Source: Patescibacteria group bacterium (GTDB lineage Bacteria; Patescibacteriota; Patescibacteriia; JAHIZJ01). Taken from it: a stretch of 64,000 nt of DNA. A program made the translations under genes and the position numbers. The stretch lies in contig JAQTMH010000003.1 in NCBI GenBank assembly GCA_028714495.1, forward strand, positions 8,496 through 72,495, written 5' to 3'. Shown one piece after another: positions 1 through 40,191 of this stretch. Positions within the stretch are counted from its first letter, which is position 1. The number at the start of each line of letters is the position of its first letter. The notes below the pieces were generated by a model. That model did not search any database. It saw only the letters and a program-made list of their open reading frames with translations, and was not told the origin of the DNA.

Positions 1-146
1 AAGGTTCCGGGCTGGCCCGTGCAAATCGGGCAAATCGTCGTATTGGCTGGCTGGTTTTCGCCGGCATTATCGCAGCCGCAAAACATCTTGCTCTTGGTTT
101 TGAGCTGAACGTGGATTTCAAGCCCAATGACTGGTTCAAGCTTCAT
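1..146 (-). CDS. gatB: Asp-tRNA(Asn)/Glu-tRNA(Gln) amidotransferase subunit B, N-terminal fragment (gene runs off the left edge of the window)
   Basis: The reverse-complement translation from the ATG at 144-146 gives [47 protein letters not shown], which matches the conserved GatB N-terminus (VIGLEVHVQL ... CxC ... CPVC). Its start overlaps the stop of the next gene in an ATGA arrangement. Confidence 0.7.
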
Positions 147-781
147 GGTTTATTTTTTTGCCAAATATCCTTTTGCCAAATATCCTTGCCGCGAAGGAAT
201 TGCGAAACTATTTCCAAAATATCTTCGTTGACCTGGGTAATCGTCTGATTGGCATTGACCATTTTCCAGCCGTACATCGAAGCCAGTTTCTGGTGCCAGC
301 GGCGGCAGCGTTCGATTAATATATCATCGTTCTCGTGGATGTGCTTTTTTTCCTTACCGTTAATGAAACGCTCACCGTCGATTAATATCGCCAGGTCTTC
401 ATGCACTAGCGGCTGGTTTATCTCCACCAGCCAGTCCAAATCAGCGCCTTTGGTCGCGCCCCAAGCCAGGCCCGTGCCGATATAATCTTCAGCCACGACT
501 ATCTTCCCTGCCGCCAGCTTCTTTTGCAGAGCTGGTTCGTATTGAAAACGGTTAAGCGTGTACCACATCTGAAATTCATTTTCGTTGATCGGCTGGTCAT
601 CGTGGCTCCGTAAAATCCGATTGATGAACGGGCCAGTCGGCGTAATCCGGTAAACCGGGTATTTGACGTATTCGGTCGGCCAGCTGTTCCGGTTTAAAAA
701 CTCCACCAGCATTTTTGCCTGGGTGGATTTGCCTAGATTATTGACCCCGTAAATCGTTATTAAATATCCATGTCGTTTCAT
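143..781 (-). CDS. thymidylate kinase-like P-loop nucleotide kinase
   Basis: 212-aa ORF with an N-terminal P-loop ([16 protein letters not shown]) and a DRY-like [13 protein letters not shown] segment, as in the dTMP kinase family. It sits in a thymidylate-metabolism neighbourhood. Confidence 0.55.
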
Positions 782-846
782 GACTCTATTGTATCACCTT
801 CTGAAAAATAAAAAAAGCCGTAAATTTGCTTTGTCTTAGGCTTAAA

Positions 847-1281
847 TTAGCGGATAAACAAGTACCAAATGGCGCCCGACAGCACTATGGCCCCCGGATA
901 TAAAACGGGTATGTGGTAAGACCCGACTCTCATCCAGGGATACCACCAAACCTTTTCATGGCGGAAATCTTTGAATTTAAACTTCGGGTTGACCACAAAC
1001 CAGAGAAAATCCTCTACCAAGATTCCCACGAGATAGCCGCAGGCAATGACTGCCAATAGCTTGCCGTCATAGCCATGCGTGATAATCGGCAAAAGCAGAA
1101 ATAGCGGCAGGCAGACCCCAAACAGCATAAAATGATAACCAGTCAGCCTCAAACCAAAAATCTTCCTAACCCAGCCCACCTGCTTTTCCGCGCCACCATG
1201 CTCGCCCTCAATATAGGCCTCCCAGAATGAAATCGAAGCAAAGGCTAATATTATCCAAAAGAAAGTAAGGGTATAGTGCAT
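847..1281 (-). CDS. hypothetical integral membrane protein
   Basis: 144-aa ORF with several hydrophobic helices and no recognisable catalytic motif. Confidence 0.45.
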   Translation of the reverse strand: MHYTLTFFWIILAFASISFWEAYIEGEHGGAEKQVGWVRKIFGLRLTGYHFMLFGVCLPLFLLLPIITHGYDGKLLAVIACGYLVGILVEDFLWFVVNPKFKFKDFRHEKVWWYPWMRVGSYHIPVLYPGAIVLSGAIWYLFIR

Positions 1282-1448
1282 GGCTTTATTATAGCATAAC
1301 TGGTGTGGCTATCAGAGAATTCAAAATTTATAATGTAAATTATTGTATCCGCCTAGGGAGGATTCCTTCATTTTTAATTTTGAATTTTTAATTTCTTCAT
1401 TTGACCCAAATAAAAAAGCCTTCACCCAAATGAGTGAAAGCTGAATCG

Positions 1449-2087
1449 CTAGATTACTCTGATGCCTATGTCCTGATATACCTGGATAAAACAGGAAAGG
1501 CAGACTGGTTCATAGCTGACACCTTTCGTACCCTGAACCAGGAACTGAGGTGAATCTCTCGGCGCGGGCATCCCATCAATCAGTCGGAGAGAACGAGTGG
1601 CTCCTTCTCCGCACCTGATGCAAACAGCATCGCGCAAACGGTAGACCTTTACCTCGGGCATCAGCACAACATCAGCCGTGGTAGTGAATGGACGACCCAT
1701 GTGGTCAGTATCGAGTCCGGCAAAAAACACAGACTTCCCCTGTTGATAAAGTTTCAACAAGGCTCGCCTGAGTCCTCGGCCCCAAAACTGTCCTTCATCG
1801 ACCAGGACAACCTTGGCCGCTCGGACCTTAGGGTGTCGCAGCATGTCGCTCGGTCGCTGGGCATTGATGATCACAATTTCAATCCCTTCCAGCTGCGGAC
1901 CCCCGTGACTGACAATCTGGTCAGTGCCTGCGTCACGAGTATCGCGAGACGGCCGAAGCCAGACAAACGGGATATCCTGACCATGCTGTCTCATTCGGAT
2001 AATCTGCCGCGCCACAGCACACAGCTTTTCGGTCTTACCCGAGCACATCGGACCGATAAACGCCAAAATCCTCTTCTCCCAGAGCAT
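1449..2087 (-). CDS. tdk: thymidine kinase
   Basis: P-loop IGPMCSGKT, a VLVDEGQF Walker B-like segment and a C-terminal zinc ribbon (CIRCG ... CLSC). The likely start is the second ATG (MLWEK), which is preceded by GAGGAGGG. Confidence 0.9.
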   Translation of the reverse strand: MLWEKRILAFIGPMCSGKTEKLCAVARQIIRMRQHGQDIPFVWLRPSRDTRDAGTDQIVSHGGPQLEGIEIVIINAQRPSDMLRHPKVRAAKVVLVDEGQFWGRGLRRALLKLYQQGKSVFFAGLDTDHMGRPFTTTADVVLMPEVKVYRLRDAVCIRCGEGATRSLRLIDGMPAPRDSPQFLVQGTKGVSYEPVCLSCFIQVYQDIGIRVI

Positions 2088-2383
2088 AATGGTTGACCCT
2101 CCTCTATTTGCCATTTGGTAATGTACGGTTTTCCTCCGCCTAGATTTTAGTTTCGAAGACTTCGACTGTCAATGTTAATAAGTATGACATCAGAATAATC
2201 AATGGTTACTCGATTGGTTGACAATTTGAATCATTTGTGATAAGTTATTTTATCAGTATAATTTGGCACTTTGATATTTCATCTCAACGGCGATATGGCT
2301 AGAATTTGTTGATTCCCGCTTTGTCGCTGTTGAGATAGATGAACTAGTCAATTGTCGGTAAGTAGTCAACCAAGGAGGTTGGG

Positions 2384-3151
2384 ATGTTCATCGGTTACAA
2401 TGATCACGAAGTCTGCGCCACGCCCCTGGGTGGATCGATCATCAGCTGGGACTGTGGCGGCATGGGTGTTCTTGGGCCGGTCTGCCAGAAAATGGTGGAG
2501 ACTCCCACGCCAAGCGGTTTCACTTTCAAACGGCGCGGACTGTCGCACTGGTGCTTCCCCAATTTTGGTTCGGTGCCGAACAAGGCGGGATTATTGGGCC
2601 TACCCAAGCATGGCGTTTTACGTGACACTCTGCTTTTGCCCAGCCAGATTCGTGGGCAACGGATGGAATTCTGGAACCACATCGAGCTGGGCGGAGTGCC
2701 TGACATCAGCGTGGGAATTTCCTTGACCATCGGCCACCACGGTCCCAATAACGGTTCAGCCCGTCTCAACCTGACCCTGATGGCTTATGTACAGCAAGAC
2801 GACGGGGAACCGATCAGACTTCCCATTCTTCCGGCCTGGCATCCCTACTTTGCCGGTCCTGCCACTGTTACCATCGGCGGTCATAAGATCGAGGTCGGTC
2901 CTGACCCGGCAATTATCGAACGAGCCGATACAATCACTATTGTTCTGAAGGATCGGGGCAGGGTTACAATGATCCCTTCATTCAGCTGCCACTGGTTGGT
3001 TGTCTGGAGCGACGACCCAGCCAAGTATGTCTGTGTCGAGCCAGTCTTCGGCGGACGTCCAGGTACCTTCGGTACCGACGAGCAGGAGACTTTCCTCGAG
3101 CCCGACAAACCGTTTACCTGTTTCGTGAACACGATCTTTACTCCCTTCTAG
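2384..3151 (+). CDS. aldose 1-epimerase-like (galactose mutarotase fold) protein
   Basis: 255-aa ORF with a strong SD (AAGGAGG) 6 nt upstream. An HG(V)LRD-type segment and the overall length fit the small YeaD-like mutarotase family. The region is GC-richer than its surroundings. Confidence 0.45.
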   Translation: MFIGYNDHEVCATPLGGSIISWDCGGMGVLGPVCQKMVETPTPSGFTFKRRGLSHWCFPNFGSVPNKAGLLGLPKHGVLRDTLLLPSQIRGQRMEFWNHIELGGVPDISVGISLTIGHHGPNNGSARLNLTLMAYVQQDDGEPIRLPILPAWHPYFAGPATVTIGGHKIEVGPDPAIIERADTITIVLKDRGRVTMIPSFSCHWLVVWSDDPAKYVCVEPVFGGRPGTFGTDEQETFLEPDKPFTCFVNTIFTPF

Positions 3152-3174
3152 CCGGAACTTCCGGCAGCAATCTG

Positions 3175-3217
3175 CCCCGCAGCGTTAGTACCAACTTTCG
3201 CCGCGGGGTTTTCTTTT
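3175..3217 (+). terminator. intrinsic terminator downstream of the epimerase-like gene
   Basis: GC-rich stem CCCCGCAGCG ... CGCCGCGGGG followed by TTTTCTTTT. Confidence 0.55.
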
Positions 3218-3319
3218 ATTGACAAATATCGAAACAGGTATAATGTATAACTGCTTCAGTGGATACATTGAAGCTGTCCTTCACACCCGATAGGGCCCTG
3301 GATGCAGGAGGAGATTCTT

Positions 3320-3748
3320 ATGAGAAGCATGCTTGATGTACAGCAGATCTTGGATGGTTCGGACAAGATCAACCGGATGAAACGGCAAATCGGACTGATC
3401 CTTTCCATGGTTTCCGGTTTTCTTGATTGCCAGACCAAAGGAAGCAGTGTCACCCCTCTCATTCAAGTGATTTTCACGTTTACCGACCAAAACGGCTATC
3501 TCTGGCAAGCGAGGTTCGCGAATAGGGGGGACCGGGGCGTGCGCTTCGAGGTTGAAATCTCGAAATGCAGCATTCTCCTTTATAACGCCCGCCGTGGAAG
3601 CGACTGTATCCCGCTCGAACACGTTGAGAAGATACACGAAGGTCTTCCCTCTTTTCTCGACCAAGTCGACAATAAATTCCCTGAGCTAAGAGATGTTCTC
3701 GATTTCCTGGCTGGAGTTGGATCGAGAACTAAATCACTCGCGTCCTGA
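3320..3748 (+). CDS. hypothetical protein
   Basis: ORF on the plus strand. The second in-frame ATG (MRSML) is preceded by AGGAGG. No family was recognised. Confidence 0.4.
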   Translation: MRSMLDVQQILDGSDKINRMKRQIGLILSMVSGFLDCQTKGSSVTPLIQVIFTFTDQNGYLWQARFANRGDRGVRFEVEISKCSILLYNARRGSDCIPLEHVEKIHEGLPSFLDQVDNKFPELRDVLDFLAGVGSRTKSLAS

Positions 3749-3837
3749 TCTTTCCCCGAGCCGCCCCCAAACGGCTCTTTTTTATTATTATATAATTCTT
3801 GGTTTGTTTAAGTATTACAGCAATAAAAAAGGGAGGT

Positions 3838-4030
3838 GATGGCTGCGCACATCACCTCATCTGTGCATGACGCTCTCATAAGAGACACCCAGAGCCGCAG
3901 CGGGTGCCTGACCCCTGGTGAGCGCTCACCTCACCTAAGGGTAAGCCTTCCCTGGTCAGAGCGTCCAAACCATCTCGGCTCTCAAGGAAGCCTCCATGGT
4001 TCACTGCGGCCCCTATTAGCCGCAGTGGTA
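3838..4030 (+). ncRNA. candidate structured ncRNA, possibly SRP RNA (4.5S-like) or alternatively 6S RNA
   Basis: A roughly 190-nt GC-rich block (about 58% GC) in AT-rich intergenic DNA. It contains CCUGGUCAG ... AAGGAAGC, which resembles the SRP RNA helix 8 motif (GGUCAG ... GGAAGGAAGC), a 9-bp hairpin at its 5' end and a perfect GGTGAGCGCTCACC palindrome. The overlapping 68-aa ORF is S/R/P/H-rich and not protein-like. Confidence 0.35.
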
Positions 4031-4181
4031 TTATTATGTTAAATAAGTATTTTATATTTGTCAATTTAATTAGCAGAACTCTATTCCAGTATATAACAAA
4101 AAAGAATCCATTATTGATATCGATGGAAAAATAGTAGTAGCAAGAAAACGGCTCATACAGCCGTTTTCTTGTATGAATTTA

Positions 4182-5930
4182 CTAATTTACTTTTTTATTA
4201 TCTTTGGCGATTTTCTCATCCAATTCCCTCTCCTTCACCCTCTGCTTCGCCTCTGAATCCGCCCTGGCCCAGTCATATTGATTGTAGTCGACGAATTTCA
4301 TATGGTCGGCGCGCCAGTCAGATCGCTCCTGGATCTTTCTATGGAGTTCTTGGCAGACTTTGCGATAGGCAGGATGTCCCTGGGGGCCGGTTCGCAGTTC
4401 CAGCAGATGATAAGCTTCGCGCTCGTTGAAAGCCAGAAGCCAGCGGACTTTTGAGCCGTGAAGAGTGGCGTAAGACGCTTCGCTCGGAAAGTCAGGATAT
4501 AGCCTGTTATAAAGCTCCATTGATTTCTCATGGCAAGCTTTTATTTTATCTTCAAAACCGGCTTTGATAATATCTGGAGGCATGGTAAATCCCAGCAGAG
4601 GTGAAAAACGCTGCTTGAGCTGGGAAGTCATCCGGTGACGCATCACGTCTTTATAAACTCCAAAATCCGTGACCAGGTCAAAGGTGTAGGGGTAACCGGC
4701 TTCAAAAGCTCGATATGGCCGATCCCGCCGAGTTTTTCTTTCGCCAATATAAGTATTGATTATCTTTTCTCGGCTTTCAACCGGAAGTTTTTCGACAATC
4801 TTGATTAATTGCTTCAAAGGGTGCCGGCAATAGGCATAAAGCATCATTGCCAAAGTGACATTGTCAAAACGGTCTTGCATAATCGATTTAACTTTGTCGA
4901 GAGTGATATATCCCTGGCTCAGCTTGTGGGCAATGTAATTCTCGCCGAAATCAAGAAGCGAAATATTCTCATCAGCCATCGGCTCTGTGTCTTTCAGCAA
5001 TTCAACAGCTAGGGCGTACATATTTTTCTCGATTGACGATTGATATTCATTTGCCTTGGCTCGGCGGACATAGGCTGGGATGATCTTGGCCAGTTCAAGA
5101 GCCGCTGATTTTCCAATTGTTTGGGCTTCGGGAAAAGGACTGCTCAGTAGCGCGCTGATAAATCCTTGATAAAATCTCCCATTGCCAAACCAGCCGACAT
5201 TCGTTTTCGTTGATAAAGGTAAAATGTAACGTAGCGTATCACAAGCTCTGGTACGAATATCCATCTGGTAAGTCGTTTTAAATGCCTTTTGATCGACCGG
5301 GTCAGTCAAATCATCGTAGCGTTGTTTTACTTTCGTGCCTTTGATGTCGTATTCAGCCTGCTTCAACGGCTTCAACTTCTGATAATATTTCTTCATCGGT
5401 TCAATCAATTCGCAATAGGTCTGAAAGAAAAAATCCATTGTCTCAATGTACGCCTGCCCATGCTTCGAGGCCACGATATTCGGGTCTCGGTAGTAGCGAT
5501 AATTCCCCGCCTCATCCTTTTGGTCGTAAAAAACATACCGCGTAGATTGCTCAATCGGCGAGCCCCCGATCCGGCATTCCTCCATCTCCTTAGTGGCTAT
5601 TATTGTAACATTCTCGGTTGAGAGGTGTGTGCCCTCCAGTTCGCCCACAGAATCGTCCCCAAACGCTATTAAAACGCGCTGGATGAGCTCTGCGGCGTGT
5701 TTGGGATCTACCACACCCTCTTTGATGAATTCCTTCAGCAGGGTCTCGCGAAAGCCCCCCCTGGCCCGGCTATATCGAGCATAGGCCGCGCCGACCATTC
5801 CCTGCATTCCGGTTACGCAAAAAACATCGCCGGTTGGATCGGTTACGTATTTCTTTAAGAGTTCGATTTCTTCGGGTGTGAATATCGGCATATATTTATC
5901 TTCCAGTGCTGCCAAATCCTCCTTGGCCAC
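4182..5930 (-). CDS. thyX: flavin-dependent thymidylate synthase ThyX, long (tandem-like) form
   Basis: Carries the ThyX signature RHR(x7)S (VMRHRMTSQ). At 582 aa it is about twice the canonical ThyX length, as in the long chlamydial-type ThyX. The track start is a GTG that overlaps the dut stop; an ATG (MPIFTPEE) 13 codons downstream is an alternative start. Confidence 0.65.
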   Translation of the reverse strand: MAKEDLAALEDKYMPIFTPEEIELLKKYVTDPTGDVFCVTGMQGMVGAAYARYSRARGGFRETLLKEFIKEGVVDPKHAAELIQRVLIAFGDDSVGELEGTHLSTENVTIIATKEMEECRIGGSPIEQSTRYVFYDQKDEAGNYRYYRDPNIVASKHGQAYIETMDFFFQTYCELIEPMKKYYQKLKPLKQAEYDIKGTKVKQRYDDLTDPVDQKAFKTTYQMDIRTRACDTLRYILPLSTKTNVGWFGNGRFYQGFISALLSSPFPEAQTIGKSAALELAKIIPAYVRRAKANEYQSSIEKNMYALAVELLKDTEPMADENISLLDFGENYIAHKLSQGYITLDKVKSIMQDRFDNVTLAMMLYAYCRHPLKQLIKIVEKLPVESREKIINTYIGERKTRRDRPYRAFEAGYPYTFDLVTDFGVYKDVMRHRMTSQLKQRFSPLLGFTMPPDIIKAGFEDKIKACHEKSMELYNRLYPDFPSEASYATLHGSKVRWLLAFNEREAYHLLELRTGPQGHPAYRKVCQELHRKIQERSDWRADHMKFVDYNQYDWARADSEAKQRVKERELDEKIAKDNKKVN

Positions 5931-6321
5931 GCTCGGTATCGCTTAATTTTTCGACTTCGACAATTTTAGCCTGTTCAACCGGCTGGACAAGCAGTTGCGC
6001 GATCTTATCGCCTTTTTTTATTTCCTGAGGGTTTTCGCCCGTGTTGAGGAGTACGATCATCAGTTCGCCGCGATAGCCCGAATCAAGCACGCCGCTAAGG
6101 CAATGGATCCCCTTTTTTGAAGCCAGCCCGCTCTTGTCCCAGACCAGTCCGACATAACCATTAGGAAGTTCCAGCGCGATACCCACGGGAAATGTGCGAC
6201 GCTCTGATGGCTTGATGGTGTAGTTTTCACAGCTAAACAAATCCAAGCCGGCATCTCCAGGAAAAGCGTATTCTGGCAATCTCGCCTCTGAATTCAACCT
6301 TTTTATTTTCACGCTTAGCAT
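5896..6321 (-). CDS. dut: dUTP diphosphatase
   Basis: Classic dUTPase motifs: GDAGLDL, GYRGE and a C-terminal GGFGSTG. Confidence 0.95.
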   Translation of the reverse strand: MLSVKIKRLNSEARLPEYAFPGDAGLDLFSCENYTIKPSERRTFPVGIALELPNGYVGLVWDKSGLASKKGIHCLSGVLDSGYRGELMIVLLNTGENPQEIKKGDKIAQLLVQPVEQAKIVEVEKLSDTERGQGGFGSTGR

Positions 6322-6394
6322 AGATATATATTAACGGATAAACAAAATCAGAGCAAATTTAAGAGATTTTGTAGTAAATGATAATGCGAACACT

Positions 6395-6420
6395 GCTATC
6401 ATGCTATATAGCATGATAGC
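6395..6420. promoter_or_regulatory. perfect 26-bp palindrome (candidate operator) in the dut-thyX upstream region
   Basis: GCTATCATGCTATATAGCATGATAGC is exactly self-complementary. It lies between the dut start and the stop of the TrpR-like gene. Confidence 0.5.
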
Positions 6421-6431
6421 ACGCGTCTGCT

Positions 6432-6743
6432 CTATTTTTTTATTGTTTTTAACGCTGTCTCATAACCGCCTCTGCCAAAATTTAACCAGCGGTCCACCCG
6501 TGAAATTGTCGGAAATCCTGCTTTTAGCTTCTCCCGGATTTCACGGTGGCTTTTACCACTGATTAGCATATCAGCAATGAGCAGTCGCCTAATTAGCATG
6601 ATTCTCTCCTGTCGGTTCAAGAGGTCTTTCAGGAAATTGCGAATGTCTGATTTTGTTTTCAATCTGGCCAACGTCTCGCAGAAATGATCCATCAACCGAT
6701 CCTGCAGTTTATAAGGAATCTTATTGGCATTGTAGCGTGCCAT
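6432..6743 (-). CDS. TrpR/YerC-YecD family putative DNA-binding protein
   Basis: About 104 aa from the MARYNANK start. A helix-turn-helix-like region (LISGKSHREIREKLKAGFPTISRV) fits the Trp repressor-like YerC family. Confidence 0.55.
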   Translation of the reverse strand: MARYNANKIPYKLQDRLMDHFCETLARLKTKSDIRNFLKDLLNRQERIMLIRRLLIADMLISGKSHREIREKLKAGFPTISRVDRWLNFGRGGYETALKTIKK

Positions 6744-6767
6744 AAATACTCCACGGCAAATCCCCCT

Positions 6768-6840
6768 GCTATCATGGCTACCCAGCACTGAGTCTGGTGC
6801 TGGGCTATATAGCATGAAACGTATACCAAATATAGCATTA
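6768..6840. promoter_or_regulatory. cluster of operator half-site repeats plus a hairpin upstream of the TrpR-like gene
   Basis: GCTATCATGGCTA (left half of the palindrome), then the hairpin CCCAGCAC ... GTGCTGGG, then CTATATAGCATGA and AATATAGCATTA. The TATAGCATGA half-site recurs. Confidence 0.35.
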
Positions 6841-8343
6841 TTTAATTATTCTCACAATTCCTTTGGTGGCATCCACCTCTACCATATCCCCGTCCTTCAG
6901 TACCCGCATGGCAAACCGCGTGCCGACGACACACGGGATTTTCAGCTCGCGTGCGATTATCGCGGCGTGCGAGGTTAGACCGCCTTCGTCCGTAATGATT
7001 CCCGCTGCCCGATGCATAAGTGGAACAAAATCAGGCCGCGTCATATACGTCAGCAGTATTTCGCCTGGCCGAAGATTCTTACCATGAATGGAAGGGGTTT
7101 CGATTTTTCTTATCCTCCCGCGAATACGGCCCGGGGATGCGGCAATGCCGGAAAAAACCGTGGTTTGAGTCGGCAGATTTAGACCAGCAATCCGCCGCCA
7201 GCAGGCCTCATACCGACGGCCGCTCATCATAATTTCCTGCCCGTCGACAAAAGTTATATAGGCACAACCGCTAATGCGCCGTTGGAGTTCAGGGCGCAAC
7301 ACTTTTTTCCCTCGATACGCCCTAAACAGTTCATGCGGCGTCAGATGCCATATTTCCGATACTGTATAACCGAGTTCCTTCGCAAACAGCTTAATAAATT
7401 TCTGACACCAGTAGTTGGCAATGAGATTCGCCTGCTTCCGCTCATCCTGCCAATGTCCGGCCCAGCCGACTGACTTTAATGCCCGCATCTCATAAGAAGT
7501 AAGGCTAGTGCGGCGGCTGGCCTTAAATTGTGTTTTTGCCAGCGACAACCGATAATTACGTAGCTCCTGCCGGCGCTGATTTTTCTTTCCGGACGTCATT
7601 TTAGTCAGCGCAAGCAACTTGTTATAAAAATATTCAAGGCTTAGCGGAACCGTGTCCCGATAATTGAACTGAACCCAGAAATACCGGCGCTGGATTCGCT
7701 CAAGGTCGCGATAGGCCTCCGGCCGGCGACGCTGAAATTCGGCCAAGCGAGTCGGCAACCGTTTCTGGCCGAGCGATTTTTCCAATTGCAATAGATCGAG
7801 TTCTAATCGTTGAAGAAACGACAGTTTTGGAGGCTGAGTAAAAACGATAATATCATCATCAAGCCTTTTGTATCCCGCATATTTCCTTTTCAGCTCGCGG
7901 ACAAATTTATCTCCACCGAGCGAATAATACTCAGTGATCAATGGCAAACTGTATTCATCTAGATACAGCCGATAAAAACGCTGGAATTCCTTGAGCGGCT
8001 GCCGCGAAATGTCCGTCTTTTCTAATCGTTCTATCTCCTGGTAGAAACGCCGTTTGAAAACTAGCCAGCGCCGAAAAACACGCTGGACATAATCCTTATT
8101 TTTGAAACACCAGTAGCCTTTACCCTCAAATTCATCCTCGTCGTAGATCCAGTACGATTTCAGACCATTCTGCGTGGAGACGACAACGATTTTTTCAGCG
8201 GCTAATTTCGGAAATTGCCGGCGGAGCACGTAGGTGATCGCTTGTCCGGGAATGATCGCCGTAAACGGCACAAAGACCCCGCCCTGGATCACCCAGTGCG
8301 TGGTACCCGAAAATAATCTTTTTTCCGCTTTGGCAATGTTCAT
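6838..8343 (-). CDS. PEP-utilising enzyme mobile (phosphohistidine swivel) domain protein, paralog 1
   Basis: The C-terminus reads ITDEGGLTSHAAIIARELKIPCVVG (PF00391-like, catalytic His). The roughly 400-aa N-terminal region is helical and of unknown function. There is no ATP-grasp domain and no PEP-binding TIM barrel. Confidence 0.8.
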   Translation of the reverse strand: MNIAKAEKRLFSGTTHWVIQGGVFVPFTAIIPGQAITYVLRRQFPKLAAEKIVVVSTQNGLKSYWIYDEDEFEGKGYWCFKNKDYVQRVFRRWLVFKRRFYQEIERLEKTDISRQPLKEFQRFYRLYLDEYSLPLITEYYSLGGDKFVRELKRKYAGYKRLDDDIIVFTQPPKLSFLQRLELDLLQLEKSLGQKRLPTRLAEFQRRRPEAYRDLERIQRRYFWVQFNYRDTVPLSLEYFYNKLLALTKMTSGKKNQRRQELRNYRLSLAKTQFKASRRTSLTSYEMRALKSVGWAGHWQDERKQANLIANYWCQKFIKLFAKELGYTVSEIWHLTPHELFRAYRGKKVLRPELQRRISGCAYITFVDGQEIMMSGRRYEACWRRIAGLNLPTQTTVFSGIAASPGRIRGRIRKIETPSIHGKNLRPGEILLTYMTRPDFVPLMHRAAGIITDEGGLTSHAAIIARELKIPCVVGTRFAMRVLKDGDMVEVDATKGIVRIIK

Positions 8344-9815
8344 GCTCTTGTTATTACGCCATGATCCGCATCCACCTCCACTCTATCCCCATCCTTCAGT
8401 ATATTAACCGCCCCCTGAACTCCGACTACGGTGGGTATTTTAAATTCGCGCGCTACAATGGCCGTGTGGCAGGTTAGCCCGCCTTCGTCAGCGACAACAG
8501 CCGCGGCGATCTTCATAATTGGCGAATATTCTGGTCTGGTATTTGGCGCGACTAATATATTGCCTGGTTTCATCTTATGGAAATCGCGCTTGTCTCTGAC
8601 AATTCTGACAGTGCCTTTAACAATCCCCGGATAGGCTGACCGGCCAGTCAGCTTGGCATTCTCTTTGATCTTATTTTTAAGATAGTTGTTCAAATTCCGG
8701 CCGGTTTCTCCGTAAAATTCAATAAAATTATCTAAATCTTTCAAATAGTAAAAAACCGGCTGACGGCGGTTTTTAATGTTTTTAATAAATTTAGGCGTTA
8801 GTCTAAAGATTTTCTCTATTTCCCAATGAAACAGGCGCTCGACTTCTTCAACAGTTAAACGGGTCCGCCGGCTGAATTCCTTGGCGAATTTTTGCAATAC
8901 ATTAGACGCCATCTGATTGTAAGCTTTTCTTTCATCGCGAAAATTTCCTAGTCTTGAAAGAAAATTTACCGTGCTATAGAAATGTTCGGTAAACTTGTAT
9001 CTTTGGTAAATCTCTCTTCTTAAATAGACCAGCTTATCCAAAAATTTAGCCGTGGCCTTTTCTTTTTTTATTTTAGCTTTGTTCTTCAGCAATACTTCCA
9101 GTTCCCTCTTAAAATACTGCGCATCCAAATATTCAGTCGTGGCGTAATCATTATGCAGCCAATAGAAATTTCGACTATGTTTGGCCAATTCGCGATTAAG
9201 GTATCTTTCATTTTTAATAATGCCTCCTCGTTTTATAACGCTCTCGGCGATTTTCAAAAGCGCTAGCCGCTCTTTTTGTAGAAATGACGGATTAGGCGGT
9301 GTCAGAATAATTTCCAAATCTCTAGGATTTATCTTCTTGTTTTCCTTTGTCAGCGCGTCGCTTAAGATATCGTCTCCGCAACAGTCGAAGCTGTCCAAGA
9401 ACACCGCTTCGTGCCATACCTTCATATACGCTTTGGTGAAAACGCGAAACTGAATAAGCAATTCTTGGTTCGAGTATCGACCAAGATCATCCCGCCTAAG
9501 TTGATTCAAAGCCCTCTTATATGGTTTGACGCATTCAACGTGCCAGTAATCAATTAATTTTTTGAGAAAGCGTTCGTTTTTATTTTGCTTGTTAAAATAA
9601 TAATCGGATATTTTTTTCAGCGACCTTTTTGAGAAATAAACTTCAAAATAGTGATTTTTAAAATAAACCAATGTTTCGTATTTAAACGACATCACTCTTC
9701 CCATTACCGACATCAGCGTGCAAGCGCGCCAAGGATATGACGCGTATAATAGCTTTGCCGCGCTGCCCTGTGTGTACCAGTCTAATTTCTTTATATTATC
9801 TATGTTTATTCGCAT
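8340..9815 (-). CDS. PEP-utilising enzyme mobile domain protein, paralog 2
   Basis: The C-terminus reads VADEGGLTCHTAIVAREFKIPTVVG. It shows a 4-bp overlap (ATGA) with paralog 1. Confidence 0.8.
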   Translation of the reverse strand: MRINIDNIKKLDWYTQGSAAKLLYASYPWRACTLMSVMGRVMSFKYETLVYFKNHYFEVYFSKRSLKKISDYYFNKQNKNERFLKKLIDYWHVECVKPYKRALNQLRRDDLGRYSNQELLIQFRVFTKAYMKVWHEAVFLDSFDCCGDDILSDALTKENKKINPRDLEIILTPPNPSFLQKERLALLKIAESVIKRGGIIKNERYLNRELAKHSRNFYWLHNDYATTEYLDAQYFKRELEVLLKNKAKIKKEKATAKFLDKLVYLRREIYQRYKFTEHFYSTVNFLSRLGNFRDERKAYNQMASNVLQKFAKEFSRRTRLTVEEVERLFHWEIEKIFRLTPKFIKNIKNRRQPVFYYLKDLDNFIEFYGETGRNLNNYLKNKIKENAKLTGRSAYPGIVKGTVRIVRDKRDFHKMKPGNILVAPNTRPEYSPIMKIAAAVVADEGGLTCHTAIVAREFKIPTVVGVQGAVNILKDGDRVEVDADHGVITRA

Positions 9816-9990
9816 ATTTTTCTAATTCCTTATCGATTTTCTCGTATAGCTCATCAAACGATCTGTTATTATCTATCGCGAAATCAGCCATGGTCATGCA
9901 TCGGCTGATATTCGGCCTTGTCGGATCAGTGGAATTCATTTCACGCCGTTCCCATTCCCACAACCATTTATTATTATACTCTAGATTCAT
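9796..9990 (-). pseudogene. remnant 3' fragment of a P-loop kinase gene (duplicate of the 3' end of the 12492..13058 gene)
   Basis: The 64-aa ORF contains MNSTDPTRPNISRCMTMADFAIDNNRSFDELYEKID, nearly identical to the C-terminus of the 188-aa kinase. It lies within a 120-bp direct repeat. Confidence 0.5.
9843..9962. repeat. about 120-bp direct repeat, copy A (about 93% identical to 12545..12664)
   Basis: Direct alignment of the two segments: CGTATAGCTCATCAAACGATCTGTTATTATCTATCGCGAAATCAGCCATGGTCATGCATCGGCTGATATTCGG ... Confidence 0.8.
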
Positions 9991-11072
9991 ATCTTCCTCA
10001 CAATCCCCTTATTTGCGTCCACCCCTACCCGGTCGCCATTCTTCAGCACCGTGGTCGCAATTTTTGTCCCGACAATCGTTGGAATTTTGAATTCTCTGGC
10101 GACAATCGCCGCGTGGCATGTTAACCCGCCCTCGTCGGTGATGATCGCTTTGGCATTGCGCAGATACTGGGAAAACCGAACCGTCGTCATCGGCGTTACG
10201 ATCACGTATCGCCCGCGAAGTTTTTTCAGATCTCGAAGTGTTCTGACCACCCGGGCAATGCCAATGACAGGCTTCAGCGCTGCGTACGCGGTTTGGCCAT
10301 GGAGAGCTACAGCATTGTTGCTTTCCCTGCCCGGTACTTCACGCTTGACTTGTTTCTGTATTTGTTTCGCGCGCTGGCCAATAAACAATTGTATTTTCCC
10401 GCCAACGGCTTGCAATGCATACAGACGGTAGCGCTTTTCAAGCTCTGACGCTGAAACCACCGGCCTGTTCCGGCGCAACGACTCAACCAATTCCTGGCAA
10501 TTCATAAACATGACTCGCTTTTTTTCTATCCCCAGCATGACACTCAGTGACGCTGCAAACGCCGGGATGACGACATCGTCAACCCAGGTTAATATCTTGC
10601 CACAATAATCTTTGGTGTAGCCGCAATCAGCGATTGTTGCGCGCGTAAAGGTATGGCGATGCGTATCGACGAGCGTGGGAAACCGGTAGACCGAATACAT
10701 TTCTCGGTAGGAGCGATAAAAATCCCCCAGCAACACGGCCAATGCTTTTGTCTCAAGATGTCTGCCTAACGCCCTGTTTATCCGGCCGATCTGAATGACA
10801 TTCCGCGCAAAAATCTTACGTATTTTGCCATTGATTCGACGGACAGCCGTGTCGTCTGATCGATCGAGAAAAGTTTGGAACGAACGTGAATCGCGTTCCG
10901 AAAAATAACTTTTTTCAATATCCTTTTCAGAAATAAAAAGCTGGTCGCGATAGCCCCAGCCGAGCGCTTTCTTCATATCGCGGACATACCCCTCAAGACC
11001 GAGACTCAGAATGAAATACGGAAAACCTTCCCGGGTAAAGACGGGGGTCCATTGTATGTTTTTATTTCCCAT
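9987..11072 (-). CDS. PEP-utilising enzyme mobile domain protein, paralog 3 (shorter N-terminus)
   Basis: The C-terminus reads ITDEGGLTCHAAIVAREFKIPTIVG. The protein is 361 aa. Confidence 0.75.
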   Translation of the reverse strand: MGNKNIQWTPVFTREGFPYFILSLGLEGYVRDMKKALGWGYRDQLFISEKDIEKSYFSERDSRSFQTFLDRSDDTAVRRINGKIRKIFARNVIQIGRINRALGRHLETKALAVLLGDFYRSYREMYSVYRFPTLVDTHRHTFTRATIADCGYTKDYCGKILTWVDDVVIPAFAASLSVMLGIEKKRVMFMNCQELVESLRRNRPVVSASELEKRYRLYALQAVGGKIQLFIGQRAKQIQKQVKREVPGRESNNAVALHGQTAYAALKPVIGIARVVRTLRDLKKLRGRYVIVTPMTTVRFSQYLRNAKAIITDEGGLTCHAAIVAREFKIPTIVGTKIATTVLKNGDRVGVDANKGIVRKI

Positions 11073-12486
11073 GCGTCCCGATCCAATTAAATTCCTCGCC
11101 CATCATGTCCATCGGACGTAAGCCGAGGTTTTTTCGTTCAGCGGCCGGAACATAGCTTTCATAGATTTCGAGAAGGGCGGGCTGAAGCAAATCCTTGTAT
11201 TTCATTGCTAATAGATGTTCAAGATAATCACGCGTCAGGCCGCCATCATAGATCACGTCAAAGGCGTATTGATTTATAATCGCGTTTTGCGCGTCACGGG
11301 CATAGGTCGCAATCGTGCCGCCAATCAATCCTTTTGTATCAATCGATTGTATTCTGGCGCATTCATCGGGCGCGTCAGTTAATACGGACAGCCAGGTTTC
11401 TTTCATCCGAGTAATATAATTGCAGGAACCGTGTCCAACCAGCGGCCGCACGCCCAGCCAAAACGTCAGATAGCCGAAAATGACAAATAAATTCGGGATA
11501 ATCGCGCCATCCGCAAGGCTTTTTATTACCTCAGCCGAATTGCCTAAATCAAGCTCAAACCGACCGTCAGTTGAACACAGGATCGTACCCCGCAGAAACA
11601 TGGGCTTGGCCTCGTTTTTCGCATCGCGATACCAGAAGAAGTGAGTACCCTTACCCTTCGCTTCGTTCCAACAACCGGTCAGGTCTTCAAAGGCGGCCAA
11701 AATACGAGCGCGAAAATCAGTATTGAAAAGACTGCGGCTCAGGATATTGTCCTCGGCCAATATCGACGGCAGAATCGTCCGCATAATATCTTCCTGGGTA
11801 ACATACAGTAAGTCGGGTATCGTCTCCCGGATCGACTTGTGAAATAGTTTTTTCCACAAAAACGCGTTGATGATTGCTATTTGGTCGTTGTAGCTTTTGG
11901 TCTGGGAAAAATCCAGTCCGCCTATCTCCTGTTCTATGGCTTTCAAAAAATCCTGTTCCTCGCCGGTAAAATCTTTCCAGCTGTCGGTCTTTCGCAAATT
12001 CTCGGTGAAATTAAAATCGCGCCGGCCGATAAAACAGCTGGCTTGATGCATTTCCTTATTCGAAAAAAGTGGCACGCGCTTGCCGTGGAGCTGAAACCCC
12101 TTACGATTGAAAAAATTGTTCGGTGGAACTACTGAACTTGTTAGTACGACGATCGGCTGTCGGTCGCCCGTGAGCAGGCGGTGGGCATTGGCGACAAGGT
12201 TCGTAGCGAGCAGTATTGGGTGGTTGAGGATGGAATGATGGTCGACAATATTGAGGCTCAGCGGCGGAGTAACGCATTCCTGGCGCTGAAAAACGCGCGC
12301 CAGATACTCAGCAATCGTTCGAGCCAAAAACCCTTGGCGTTGCGTATGGACCGAGTCGGCCGTATAGGTGAAGAGCGTATGTGAAAACTCAGTAATTGTA
12401 TCGTTGCAGTCAAAATATTCCGCCACCACCGGGGCGTATTTCCGTATACCGTTTTTCAGTATTTCGATGTTTTTTGAGTCAGGCAT
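11062..12486 (-). CDS. hypothetical protein (474 aa), co-operonic with the swivel-domain paralogs
   Basis: Long ORF overlapping paralog 3 by 11 bp. No family was recognised by eye. Confidence 0.6.
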   Translation of the reverse strand: MPDSKNIEILKNGIRKYAPVVAEYFDCNDTITEFSHTLFTYTADSVHTQRQGFLARTIAEYLARVFQRQECVTPPLSLNIVDHHSILNHPILLATNLVANAHRLLTGDRQPIVVLTSSVVPPNNFFNRKGFQLHGKRVPLFSNKEMHQASCFIGRRDFNFTENLRKTDSWKDFTGEEQDFLKAIEQEIGGLDFSQTKSYNDQIAIINAFLWKKLFHKSIRETIPDLLYVTQEDIMRTILPSILAEDNILSRSLFNTDFRARILAAFEDLTGCWNEAKGKGTHFFWYRDAKNEAKPMFLRGTILCSTDGRFELDLGNSAEVIKSLADGAIIPNLFVIFGYLTFWLGVRPLVGHGSCNYITRMKETWLSVLTDAPDECARIQSIDTKGLIGGTIATYARDAQNAIINQYAFDVIYDGGLTRDYLEHLLAMKYKDLLQPALLEIYESYVPAAERKNLGLRPMDMMGEEFNWIGTHGK

Positions 12487-12491
12487 AGTGG

Positions 12492-13058
12492 CTACTTCAC
12501 AAGATCGCCCAAGCCGATATCTTTTAATACGTCGTCGATCTTTGCATATAGCTCATCAAACGATCCGTTATTATCTATCACAAAATCAGCCATGGTCATG
12601 CATCGGCTGATATTCGGCTTTGTCGGATCAGTGGAATTCATTTCACGCTGTTCGTTTTCCACAAACTCCTCAAAATTTACGGCATCGGTTTCACTGTTAC
12701 GTTTTTTTATCCTCTCAAATCGAATTTTCAATTCCGCGTCAACAGCCAAAAGGTAAAATCTGTCTTTGTTTTTTAGGGCCTCAACTTCTCCGGGAGCGCG
12801 CAGGCTTTCAATAACGCAATTACCGCCGGCTTTTTCGGCTTCTTTATACAGCTCTTCGGCGATATAGCTTGGCGAATATTTTTTCCTCAGGTCATTCGCC
12901 ACCATCACCATGCTGTCGCGATTTTCCGGCAGACCCAGCTTTCTTATTTGCTTAAGCAAAAATTCCCTGACTGAGTAATGTTTATACCCTTTCTTTTTCA
13001 GGTATTCAACCACCGTGCCCTTGCCCGCTCCCAGTGTGCCGGTGATTCCGATGATCAT
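12492..13058 (-). CDS. P-loop nucleotide/nucleoside monophosphate kinase (dephospho-CoA kinase or dNMP kinase-like)
   Basis: N-terminal IIGITGTLGAGKGTV P-loop in a 188-aa protein. Its start overlaps the dCMP deaminase stop. Confidence 0.55.
   Translation of the reverse strand: MIIGITGTLGAGKGTVVEYLKKKGYKHYSVREFLLKQIRKLGLPENRDSMVMVANDLRKKYSPSYIAEELYKEAEKAGGNCVIESLRAPGEVEALKNKDRFYLLAVDAELKIRFERIKKRNSETDAVNFEEFVENEQREMNSTDPTKPNISRCMTMADFVIDNNGSFDELYAKIDDVLKDIGLGDLVK
12545..12664. repeat. about 120-bp direct repeat, copy B (3' end of the kinase gene)
   Basis: See copy A at 9843..9962. Confidence 0.8.
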
Positions 13059-13591
13059 TTTACATCCTTCATTACTACGTCGCCTTCGGGAGCTATCGTT
13101 TCCTCAACTTCATCCTCAAAAATTTCCCTGACCAAGGCGTTCCATTCGGAATTATCTTTGTACAGATCCACCCGCAGACCGGCGGCTCTCAAATAATCTG
13201 CTGATTTCGTGTTGCGATAAACTTTCGCGTAAACTACCCTTTTTATACCGGCAGCCACAACGTATTTGCAGCAATGGATGCAGGGCAGAAACTTCACATA
13301 CAATGTTGATCCTTCGGTGCTGGCTCCTGGTATGACCGCGGCCTGCAGAATGGTATTGTGCTCGGCGTGAATGGTCCTGACACAGTGACCTTCTTCCATT
13401 AAATGTCCCACCTCATCGCAATGCGGCAATCCTGGAGGAGAACCATTGTAACCGGTCGAGATAATCCTATTGTTTTTCACTAATACGGCGCCGCCTCTCA
13501 ATCGATCGCAAGTCCCTCTGGTGGCCACAATCCTGGCTAGAGCCATAAAATAGTCATCCCAAGTCGGGCGATAATACTTTGACTTTGCCAT
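13055..13591 (-). CDS. dCMP deaminase (ComEB-like)
   Basis: Zinc-binding motifs HAEHNTI and PCIHCCK of the cytidine/deoxycytidylate deaminase family. Confidence 0.9.
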   Translation of the reverse strand: MAKSKYYRPTWDDYFMALARIVATRGTCDRLRGGAVLVKNNRIISTGYNGSPPGLPHCDEVGHLMEEGHCVRTIHAEHNTILQAAVIPGASTEGSTLYVKFLPCIHCCKYVVAAGIKRVVYAKVYRNTKSADYLRAAGLRVDLYKDNSEWNALVREIFEDEVEETIAPEGDVVMKDVK

Positions 13592-13600
13592 AATATTAAT

Positions 13601-14281
13601 TTAAATGATAATTCTAATTCCCGGACCCATGGTGGAAGTCAGGGTAACATTGCGGACGTAAATTCCTTTCGAACCGTCAGGCTTGACCCGGCGAATCGCG
13701 TCAATGAAAGCCTTGGCGTTATCAGCCAGCATTTTCGCCTCGAATGAAGCCTTGCCGATAATTTGATGGACATTGCCGGTTTCATCGGAACGAAACGCCA
13801 CTTTACCGCTCTGCAAATCTTTGATCGTTTTCGCGACATCATTCGTCACGGTTTCATTTTTGGGGTTTGGCATTAAGCCTTTGGTTCCCAAGATCTTGGC
13901 AATCGGACCGAGCTTGCGCATCATTTCGGGTGTGGCCAGAGCCAAATCGAATTTCGTCTTCTCAGTGGTTTTTATCTCTTTGATCAGCTCTTCACCGCCG
14001 ACAATCGAAGCCCCGGCGTCTTTTGCCTTTGCCTGGTCGCTGTCATTAGCAAAAACTGCGATTACCAGCTTCCGGCCCGTGGGATGAGGCAATTGGGCCG
14101 TGGCGCGCACTTGCTGATCGGCTTTTTTTACGTCGATACCCAGACGGATATGCATCTCAATAGACTCGTCAAATTTTGCCGTGGAGCATTTCTTGACGAG
14201 TTCGATAGCTTCAGCCAGCGGATAGACCTTGTTTTTCTCAACACCATCCTTAACTGACCGATAGCGCTTACTCTTTTTCAT
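13601..14281 (-). CDS. rplA: 50S ribosomal protein L1
   Basis: Full-length similarity to the L1 family (226 aa) in the conserved rplK-rplA arrangement. Confidence 0.95.
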   Translation of the reverse strand: MKKSKRYRSVKDGVEKNKVYPLAEAIELVKKCSTAKFDESIEMHIRLGIDVKKADQQVRATAQLPHPTGRKLVIAVFANDSDQAKAKDAGASIVGGEELIKEIKTTEKTKFDLALATPEMMRKLGPIAKILGTKGLMPNPKNETVTNDVAKTIKDLQSGKVAFRSDETGNVHQIIGKASFEAKMLADNAKAFIDAIRRVKPDGSKGIYVRNVTLTSTMGPGIRIII

Positions 14282-39997: not shown

Positions 39998-40191
39998 GCC
40001 CTATGCTATATTATTATCATAGCGCAGGCGAGTTGCTTGCCCCGAATTCATTTCGGGGTTTACGCTCGCTATCTATATTACGCGCGCCTAAAGGCGCGCT
40101 TGCGGAGTTGGTATTATTGTTTATTTGGTGTGGGGGCAAAAAGACCGCCCTCATCGAGCGGCCTTTTCTATTGTAATCCTGTCTGAATTAT

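Follow-up and report, generated by a model that had tools for sequence, protein, structure and literature searches.

Our analysis concerns a 64-kb stretch of DNA from a Patescibacteria group bacterium (hereafter ‘the window’, meaning all 64,000 nucleotides) and, within it, a short gene coding for a regulator of the YerC/HisR type together with the perfect palindrome that lies just behind its stop codon. We see that near-perfect palindromes of the same design, 24–30 bp in length, stand beside the homologous gene in every one of the distinct Patescibacteria loci that were compared (~36/~36), and on both of its flanks in ~29 of them. On the strength of these sequence comparisons we consider it probable, at roughly 0.68, that the palindrome is the cognate operator of the adjacent YerC/HisR-type repressor and that the flanking copies form an autoregulatory pair; the link between the palindrome and the dut and thyX genes that follow it in the window looks incidental.

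A regulator gene flanked by copies of one palindrome

The regulator locus of the window contains the following features:

6432–6743, minus strand: gene for a YerC/YecD (HisR-type) TrpR-family regulator of 103 amino acids (Pfam PF01371, E=2.8e-16; TIGR02531)
6394–6421, no strand: putative downstream operator, a perfect 28-bp palindrome with four half-sites, GCTAT CAT GCTAT / ATAGC ATG ATAGC
6767–6776, no strand: upstream copy, piece 1, TGCTATCATG, equal to palindrome positions 1–10
6777–6804, no strand: 28-nt insertion splitting the upstream palindrome, holding a hairpin and with GCTA repeats on its flanks
6805–6817, no strand: upstream copy, piece 2, CTATATAGCATGA, equal to palindrome positions 11–23 (a 14/14 repeat when G6804 is included)
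6829–6857, minus strand: promoter-like site of the regulator, TTGTGA-N17-TATATT with an upstream TG, from a consensus scan

A preliminary description of this DNA had placed an exact 26-bp palindrome upstream of dut and thyX. The sequence in question, GCTATCATGCTATATAGCATGATAGC, is indeed present at 6395–6420, and its symmetry runs on for one further base at each side, making the palindrome perfect over 28 bp rather than 26 (TGCTATCATGCTAT/ATAGCATGATAGCA, 6394–6421). It starts 10 nt after the stop codon of the regulator gene, and 72 nt separate its end from the dut ATG (6321); we find no second match to it in the window with up to three mismatches allowed, and no palindrome match in any of 100 shuffled sequences.

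Upstream of the regulator, CTGCTATCATG (6766–6776) is an 11/11 repeat of 6393–6403 and GCTATATAGCATGA (6804–6817) a 14/14 repeat of the palindrome core, with a third partial copy, ATATAGCAT (6830–6838), overlapping the stop codon of the upstream PEP-utilizer gene. The word ATGCTATAT occurs five times in the window against an expectation of 0.44, four of the five being at the regulator locus; the half-sites said to recur around an 8-bp hairpin are thus real, and not the product of chance. In a related locus (L026; regulator 75% identical) an intact homologous palindrome, matching that of the window at 25/26 positions, sits at the position of window piece 1; the upstream pieces are best read as one palindrome, in order, interrupted by insertions of 28 nt (6777–6804) and 15 nt. 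The hairpin itself (CCCAGCAC-TGAGTCTG-GTGCTGGG, 6781–6804, with an 8-bp stem) is unique in the window; it could represent a small hairpin element of a repeated or mobile kind, or else the terminator of the upstream gene. A relative of it, CCCAGCACC-loop-GGTGCTGGG, is found upstream of the regulator in another locus (L030, about 5–55), at a different position.

The regulator reads from 6743 to 6432; its earlier placement as TrpR/YerC-like stands, with a corrected length of 103 rather than 104 amino acids. It scores 59.8 bits against the Trp repressor superfamily profile of Pfam (PF01371; cutoff 27), covering profile positions 3–86 of 88, and 52.6 bits against NCBIfam TIGR02531, the YerC/YecD = HisR family (cutoff 42.2), with the TrpR equivalog TIGR01321 lying below its threshold (28.2 bits; cutoff 67.25). 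Its matches in the PDB—3FRW, 3G1C and 3KOR, at E-values of 3.5e-15 to 1.9e-12—are HisR-type proteins. A protein search returned 93 homologues, all from Patescibacteria-type sources and 48–75% identical; the window regulator is also identical to an annotated protein of a 203-kb Patescibacteria contig.

For comparison, DNA was fetched for 25 reference-genome loci, for the loci of ten further proteins and for five loci from a DNA pattern scan, most genomes being covered by short flanks only (individual loci are given here as L numbers). The preliminary description had held that an operator would be in doubt were the palindrome absent from orthologous loci that retain the regulator; its presence in all of the loci examined favours an operator. 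In most loci 6–42 nt lie between the end of the upstream copy and the ATG; downstream copies start 1–26 nt after the stop codon, and the two are spaced by 349–437 bp, with no helical phasing or periodicity to be seen across loci. The two copies of any one locus resemble each other far more closely than they do those of other loci, differing at a mean of 2/26 positions as against 8.6/26 between loci (permutation p<5e-5); where they do differ, as in L016, the changes can be compensated (upstream GCTACC...GGTAGC, downstream GCTTCT...AGAAGC).

Genomes carry between one and four copies of the regulator, in different neighbourhoods, and paralogues within one genome carry different palindromes (UBA9568: L012/L014/L021/L022; MGDU01: L005/L024/L025; MFGM01: L018/L020). 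In 228 kb of loci plus the window the palindrome is found only next to the regulator; L005, L011 and L015 have in addition a third copy, ~1.5 kb off and ahead of a neighbouring gene. A distant member of the family, P0089, has three tandem copies of the site upstream, with a 40-nt period (L069 777–882, L070 401–506), and one more after its stop codon.

A metagenome-wide scan for one variant, TCCCATGCT-N4-AGCATGGGA, was aimed at members of the regulon that lie apart from the regulator gene. Of the 36 stretches that it returned, five were around YerC-like genes; paired copies occurred around such genes alone, and no usable regulon emerged. The other matches comprise a coding sequence that recurs in G+C-rich contigs, hairpins of terminator-like form in unrelated organisms, a match internal to pheT, and one unexplained repeat in a non-Patescibacteria assembly. 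The pheT match is a 22-bp palindrome with the operator core of L009 (CCCATGCTCTAGAGCATGGG), lying within coding sequence (L047 9252 / L057 505) on a contig of the same sample series as L009. One and the same 28-mer, tACTCCCATGCTC(TT/AA)GAGCATGGGAGTa, is present on three contigs of the non-Patescibacteria assembly SDBS01 (L037 1709, L048 7656, L052 6577), where its neighbours include carB, a multihaem cytochrome and rluD, with no YerC-like gene within the fetched flanks; this could be a repeat, or the regulon of a relative in another phylum.

Site anatomy, recognition and related systems

A consensus built from 51 sites (RCTNYCATRCTNY|RNAGYATGRNAGY), to which the palindrome at 6394–6421 conforms, reads R-C-T-N-Y-C-A-T-R-C-T-N-Y / R-N-A-G-Y-A-T-G-R-N-A-G-Y, with T3, A7, T8 and their mirror positions invariant in 50–51 of the 51 sites. 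The site is made up of four pentamer half-sites with an 8-bp period, such that the outer-left and inner-right, and likewise the inner-left and outer-right, each form RCTNY-N8-RNAGY; that is, two sub-operators offset from one another by 8 bp. Inner and outer half-sites are alike at the variable positions above expectation (p=2e-4). Where the centres are asymmetric, the orientation of the two copies is mixed, being direct in five loci and inverted in four. TrpR dimers bind their natural operators in tandem at 8-bp offsets, and the Patescibacteria site could be understood in the same way, as two overlapping HisR-type operators of 18 bp that would be occupied by two dimers in tandem.

The residue that appears to ‘read’ the site can be picked out by covariation. 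Profile alignment to E. coli TrpR sets the family motif G-x-x-T-I-A-R on G78-I79-A80-T81-I82-T83-R84, and the equivalent of TrpR Ile79 is Phe77 in the window protein. Across the comparative set this residue is Lys or Arg in 8/8 loci with xGT half-sites as against 1/27 loci with xCT (Fisher p=4e-7, with shared ancestry uncorrected), L018 (xCT) being the sole exception; xGT types are scattered on a neighbour-joining tree. The rule was first seen in six loci, after which four unexamined proteins were picked by their Ile79-equivalent residue alone and their DNA fetched. All four sites were as predicted (4/4) and all four loci had palindromes on both flanks: GGTTT for P0026 (Lys), GGTCC/AGTCC for P0051 (Arg), GCTTC for P0033 (Gln) and ACTCC for P0075 (Glu). 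A basic side chain from the first turn of the recognition helix reading a guanine is chemically sensible, and we take this residue–base covariation to be the strongest argument that the protein would read the sites as duplex DNA.

Elsewhere in the protein, conserved counterparts exist for Thr44 (here Asn), Arg54 and Arg84 of the TrpR pocket, those of the two arginines being invariant, and repression would on that account probably be ligand-dependent. The pocket so conserved (Asn43, Arg53 and Arg82) would predict a small ligand that bears a carboxylate. The acidic helix-2 residues noted for HisR are replaced by an invariant set (K39, D40, N43, R44, E46 and R47), which suggests a ligand other than histidine.

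The nearest described relative is HisR, the YerC of B. subtilis; a histidine-responsive TrpR-family repressor of Firmicutes, Actinobacteria and Synergistetes, studied in work that did not cover Patescibacteria (PMC9413887). Its 20-bp palindromic operator, cacTTTAnnnnnnTAAAgtg (cACTTTA-N6-TAAAGTg), has been validated in vitro for a Ruminococcus orthologue, and about half of hisR genes have an autoregulatory site (PMC9413887). Our own literature search on YerC, HisR or TrpR in Patescibacteria or the candidate phyla radiation found just this Firmicutes HisR paper, and none linking HisR/YerC to Patescibacteria. The two systems share the family (TIGR02531), the HisR-type structures as nearest PDB relatives and a palindromic operator of the same half-site geometry (ACTTT-N8-AAAGT as compared to RCTNY-N8-RNAGY; RCT-N12-AGY), with several Patescibacteria lineages using ACTTT itself. 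They differ in that the Patescibacteria site is a double operator of 26–28 bp with four half-sites, as opposed to 20 bp, and in that it stands on both flanks of the regulator's own gene; in the effector-helix residues (FLKDLLNRQER here, FFEDVCTINE in HisR); and in that a single genome can hold as many as four paralogues, each paired with a putative private operator. Genes for histidine biosynthesis or transport (HisR targets; hisXYZ, yuiF) were not seen beside the sites in any locus examined.

With E. coli TrpR (trp, aroH and trpR operators) there is in common the fold with its helix-turn-helix and the invariant counterparts of Arg54 and Arg84, and TrpR is autoregulated, as the present regulator probably is; the TrpR half-site GNACT-N8-AGTNC, however, puts CT/AG 8 bp apart as against 12 bp in the Patescibacteria sites, and the present regulator, besides lying below the equivalog cutoff, is found without a trp context. 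Systems that loop through auxiliary operators (lac O1–O2 at 401 bp, gal, deo) likewise have a second operator of the same sequence ~350–400 bp downstream of the promoter-proximal one; here, in contrast, the second site lies past the stop codon and equals the first in strength, the spacings of 349–437 bp are without helical phasing, and there is no evidence of tetramerisation. What is known, then, is autoregulators of the TrpR/HisR family; what is new is a HisR-like repressor gene bracketed by two copies of its own putative, paralogue-specific double operator.

Promoter positions, proposed mechanism and rival explanations

The -10 element of the window regulator (TGCTATATT) coincides with the third ‘half-site’ of the preliminary description, and its -35 falls within the 3'-terminal part of the preceding PEP-utilizer gene; the -10 would also appear to be a remnant of the ancestral left arm. 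The promoter of L026, TTGTGA-N16-TGCTATCAT, is homologous to that of the window, and has its -10 within the left arm of the intact palindrome. The -10 is likewise inside the left arm in L014, L015 and L016, and ends 4–14 nt before the palindrome in L007, L009, L011, L030 and L071. Such positions are what one would look for if repression worked through occlusion or an early roadblock. The earlier proposal of an autoregulated dimeric helix-turn-helix repressor thus draws support from the sequences of the relatives, with the -10 inside or just before the palindrome, but not from the window's own upstream copy, split as it is by insertions. Most regulator genes in the loci are also without a Shine-Dalgarno sequence between palindrome and ATG.

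We picture the regulator gene in Patescibacteria as a self-contained module: promoter, operator, gene, operator. The upstream operator, overlapping or directly following the -10/transcription start, would confer autorepression; the downstream operator, 350–400 bp away, would most likely either pair with the upstream one in a loop or form a roadblock that controls read-through into the next gene. No intrinsic terminator, in the sense of a G+C-rich hairpin followed by a T-run, was found on the gene strand in our scan, the interval between regulator and dut included. In the other loci downstream copies are also without T-runs, and L019 has a separate canonical terminator after its palindrome.

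Several observations count against an operator of this kind. Binding of the Patescibacteria proteins to these sites is something that we infer from sequence; in this genome the upstream operator is damaged, and its function, autoregulation included, is uncertain. The inner right half-site is poorly palindromic in L006, L011, L012 and L025. In L003, L005 and L006 the best promoter is 28–66 nt upstream, so the upstream copy would be transcribed, and where the next gene is convergent (L013, L019, L073) there is no obvious promoter for the downstream operator to control. A wider regulon is also possible, given the short flanks and the third copies in L005, L011 and L015. To these we add that the outer arms vary yet stay perfectly complementary, which is equally the signature of a hairpin, and that mismatches on the sense strand lean towards G.T over A.C (18 to 8; 16 to 7 without duplicates, p=0.09).

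The last two points are also the main attraction of a rather unlikely alternative, in which the palindromes act as RNA (or single-strand/cruciform) hairpins; stem-loops at the 5' and 3' ends of the regulator mRNA that set its stability, processing or translation, and that are possibly bound by protein. Stems of 11–14 bp do keep their complementarity through compensated changes, as in L016; the copies lie tight against the start and stop codons, a downstream copy is kept even where the next gene is convergent (L013, L019), and the promoters of L003, L005 and L006 lie ahead of the upstream copy. A hairpin, however, has no need of the 8-bp direct repeat of half-sites that the stem holds, nor is it easily squared with seven stem positions that are invariant in sequence across phylum-level diversity, with asymmetric centres that occur in both orientations relative to the gene, or with a ‘stem’ base that covaries with a residue of the DNA-recognition helix. 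The downstream copies are not followed by a T-run, and the covariance models of Rfam 15 gave no match, the two hits (22.9 and 20.8 bits) being sub-threshold and far below the gathering scores. A positive GC skew on the sense strand (0.09; 24/27 loci) would by itself lead one to expect the excess of G.T, and the G.T versus A.C count is confounded by it as a test of RNA. Unlikely too is an arrangement of orthogonal ‘self-bracketing’ modules, in which each paralogue reads only its own palindrome, by a simple code that sets the Ile79-equivalent residue against base 2 of the half-site, and the site pair acts not as a classical promoter operator but as a boundary set by the protein (a roadblock or insulator), or as an extruded DNA/RNA hairpin bound by the TrpR fold.

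That the gene is bracketed by two ~28-bp near-palindromes, exists in one to four copies per genome with differing neighbourhoods, and in the window has insertion scars and a GCTA repeat in its upstream copy, invites comparison with a mobile or recombination cassette, in which the palindromes would play the part of terminal inverted repeats, or of Xer/dif-like sites such as flank the pdif modules found on Acinetobacter plasmids. We hold this to be very improbable. No recombinase is associated with the cassette; the relative orientation of the copies is not fixed; the sites are paralogue-specific, with four types in one genome (UBA9568), and unusable by a single Xer system; third copies flank other genes; and synteny is stable across genera, as in Kerfeldbacteria L004/L006 and in the loci L013, L019, L071–73 and L077, where the order is recG, regulator, radA. 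As for the idea that the palindrome arose by chance, or is a -10 word or intergenic repeat of a generic kind in this genome, ATGCTATAT does resemble an extended -10, with one further copy at 40003 in a promoter-like spacer; the result from the shuffled sequences and the confinement of the site to the regulator leave next to no room for it, and homologous palindromes have cores that are unable to be -10 boxes (e.g. CATACGCCGGCGTATG in L003 and L020). As far as the data reach, the comparative evidence refutes a generic repeat or chance.

The operator reading remains the one that we prefer, and two candidates set aside in arriving at the list of sites should be mentioned. ATGCTATAT as a mere extended -10 word shared by promoters was rejected, homologous palindromes having G+C cores; and the site at 40003–40025, ATGCTATATTATTATCATAGC, which contains ATGCTATAT as well as GCTAT-N9-ATAGC arms, was not counted, its spacing being one base too long and its setting an AT-rich, promoter-like spacer. 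It lies upstream of an open reading frame without a Pfam match (39940 to 39392), among G+C-rich hairpins (40040–40100). Outside the locus, GCTAT-N8-ATAGC with one mismatch allowed is found four times as against 1.6 expected, which is chance level.

The dut–thyX genes, the neighbourhood and implications

The window consists almost entirely of minus-strand genes, among them also gyrB, pheT, metG, ATP synthase and clpB. Around the palindrome the order on that strand is three tandem PEP-utilizer genes (11072 to 6838), the regulator, dut (6321 to 5896) and a long thyX-like gene (5930 to 4182), the neighbouring features being:

6838–8343, minus strand: PEP-utilizer mobile-domain protein, last of three tandem paralogues (Pfam PF00391)
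6328–6356, minus strand: putative leaderless dut promoter, TTGCTC-N17-TAATAT, followed by 6 nt and the ATG at 6321; read from the sequence
5896–6321, minus strand: dut, dUTPase (Pfam PF00692, E=3e-34)
4182–5930, minus strand: long ThyX-like gene of 582 amino acids with two Thy1 stretches (Pfam PF02511, 104.9 bits in two stretches), overlapping the end of dut

In the preliminary description the regulator was a dedicated controller of thymidylate metabolism, repressing both itself and dut–thyX through the 26-mer; a proposal that we now think improbable. It has local points to recommend it: the palindrome sits in the 110-nt spacer before dut, with no terminator between regulator and dut; its left arm, TGCTATCAT, has the look of an extended -10 from which transcription towards dut could start; the genes around it form a pyrimidine deoxynucleotide island (tmk, tdk, thyX, dut and a dCMP deaminase); and elsewhere FolD (L012) or a NUDIX gene (L023/L067) comes after the regulator. 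Comparison, however, does not bear the proposal out. Dut is found directly 3' of the palindrome in this genome only. Among the closest relatives (L026–29) dut is missing, and what comes after the regulator is a PEP-utilizer gene. Dut–thyX occurs in just one other locus, L030, whose regulator is 75% identical; here three genes intervene between regulator and dut, which has a terminator of its own and a promoter of the leaderless type (TTGCAA-N16-TACAAT-N6-ATG) but no palindrome. The promoter of the window dut is of the same design.

In ~25 other loci the downstream genes are functionally unrelated. Those found after the downstream palindrome code for PEP-utilizer proteins (L002, L009, L026–29) or a HATPase_c_3 protein (L001, L005), and otherwise for MurC, RmuC, LeuS, UvrD, FolD, a methyltransferase, transketolase, MnmA, enolase, an ABC-2 permease, FtsQ, NUDIX or tRNA_bind proteins, with a convergent radA in the recG–regulator–radA group. 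Within the window, the palindrome is 38 nt upstream of the putative dut -35 and does not overlap that promoter, its centre being ~86 bp upstream of the likely leaderless dut start. The palindrome belongs with the regulator rather than with dut; it would at most control how far transcription of the regulator gene runs on into dut–thyX, a possibility that arises because the scan found no terminator-like site between the two. The intact downstream operator of the window would thus happen to precede dut–thyX, and any control of these genes would be a by-product, in the manner of a read-through gate, rather than a conserved circuit; given the surrounding island, there may be a local, lineage-specific effect.

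The island itself extends over window positions 143–14281 and comprises thymidylate kinase (tmk, 143–781), thymidine kinase (tdk, 1449–2114), thyX and dut, and, beyond the regulator and PEP-utilizer array that interrupt it, an AAA_18 nucleotide kinase (12492–13058) and dCMP deaminase (13055–13591). The putative dut promoter is weak, agreeing with the -35/-10 consensus at ~7/12 positions by eye, and was not reported by the consensus scan. In both the window (6319–6356) and L030 (about 1850–1886) dut is seemingly leaderless, the -10 hexamer ending 6 nt before the ATG without a Shine-Dalgarno sequence; in both genomes, too, the start of thyX overlaps the end of dut by 35–47 nt. The ThyX-like protein of the window scores 36 bits on TIGR02170, below the cutoff of 87.9, and its counterpart in L030 (2263–4020) has 585 amino acids; the long ThyX may be internally duplicated or fused.

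The tandem arrays to which the PEP-utilizer genes belong (window 6838–11072, three genes; perhaps also 11062–12486) code for proteins of 360–500 amino acids in which a C-terminal PEP-utilizer (phospho-histidine ‘swivel’) domain is the only recognisable part; in NCBIfam the proteins come closest to the C-terminal ends of PEP synthase, rifampin phosphotransferase and PigC/RedH. Members of the family lie next to the regulator in L002, L005, L009, L023, L026–29 and L067, sometimes directly after the palindrome, and it is possible that these arrays are true targets of the regulator. The loci with recG, the regulator and a convergent radA (L013, L019, L071–L073, L077) constitute one orthologous group, and UvrD, RmuC and NUDIX neighbours elsewhere lend a loose flavour of DNA metabolism.

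Almost nothing is known of how transcription is controlled in the candidate phyla radiation, whose members have very few regulators and are not culturable alone. A widespread regulator family here gains a concrete and testable candidate operator, a reading rule for its specificity and a searchable operator–gene–operator architecture, and its paralogue-specific protein/site pairs would represent a natural set of orthogonal repressor–operator parts; at the same time a tempting local reading, that of thymidylate control by a dedicated repressor, is corrected. Were the sites instead to act through boundary formation or hairpin binding, this would be a mode of action not described for the TrpR fold. 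In the boundary version, the site pair would decide where transcription enters and exits the module in genomes with almost no terminators, and would amount to a new way for compact genomes to partition their transcription.

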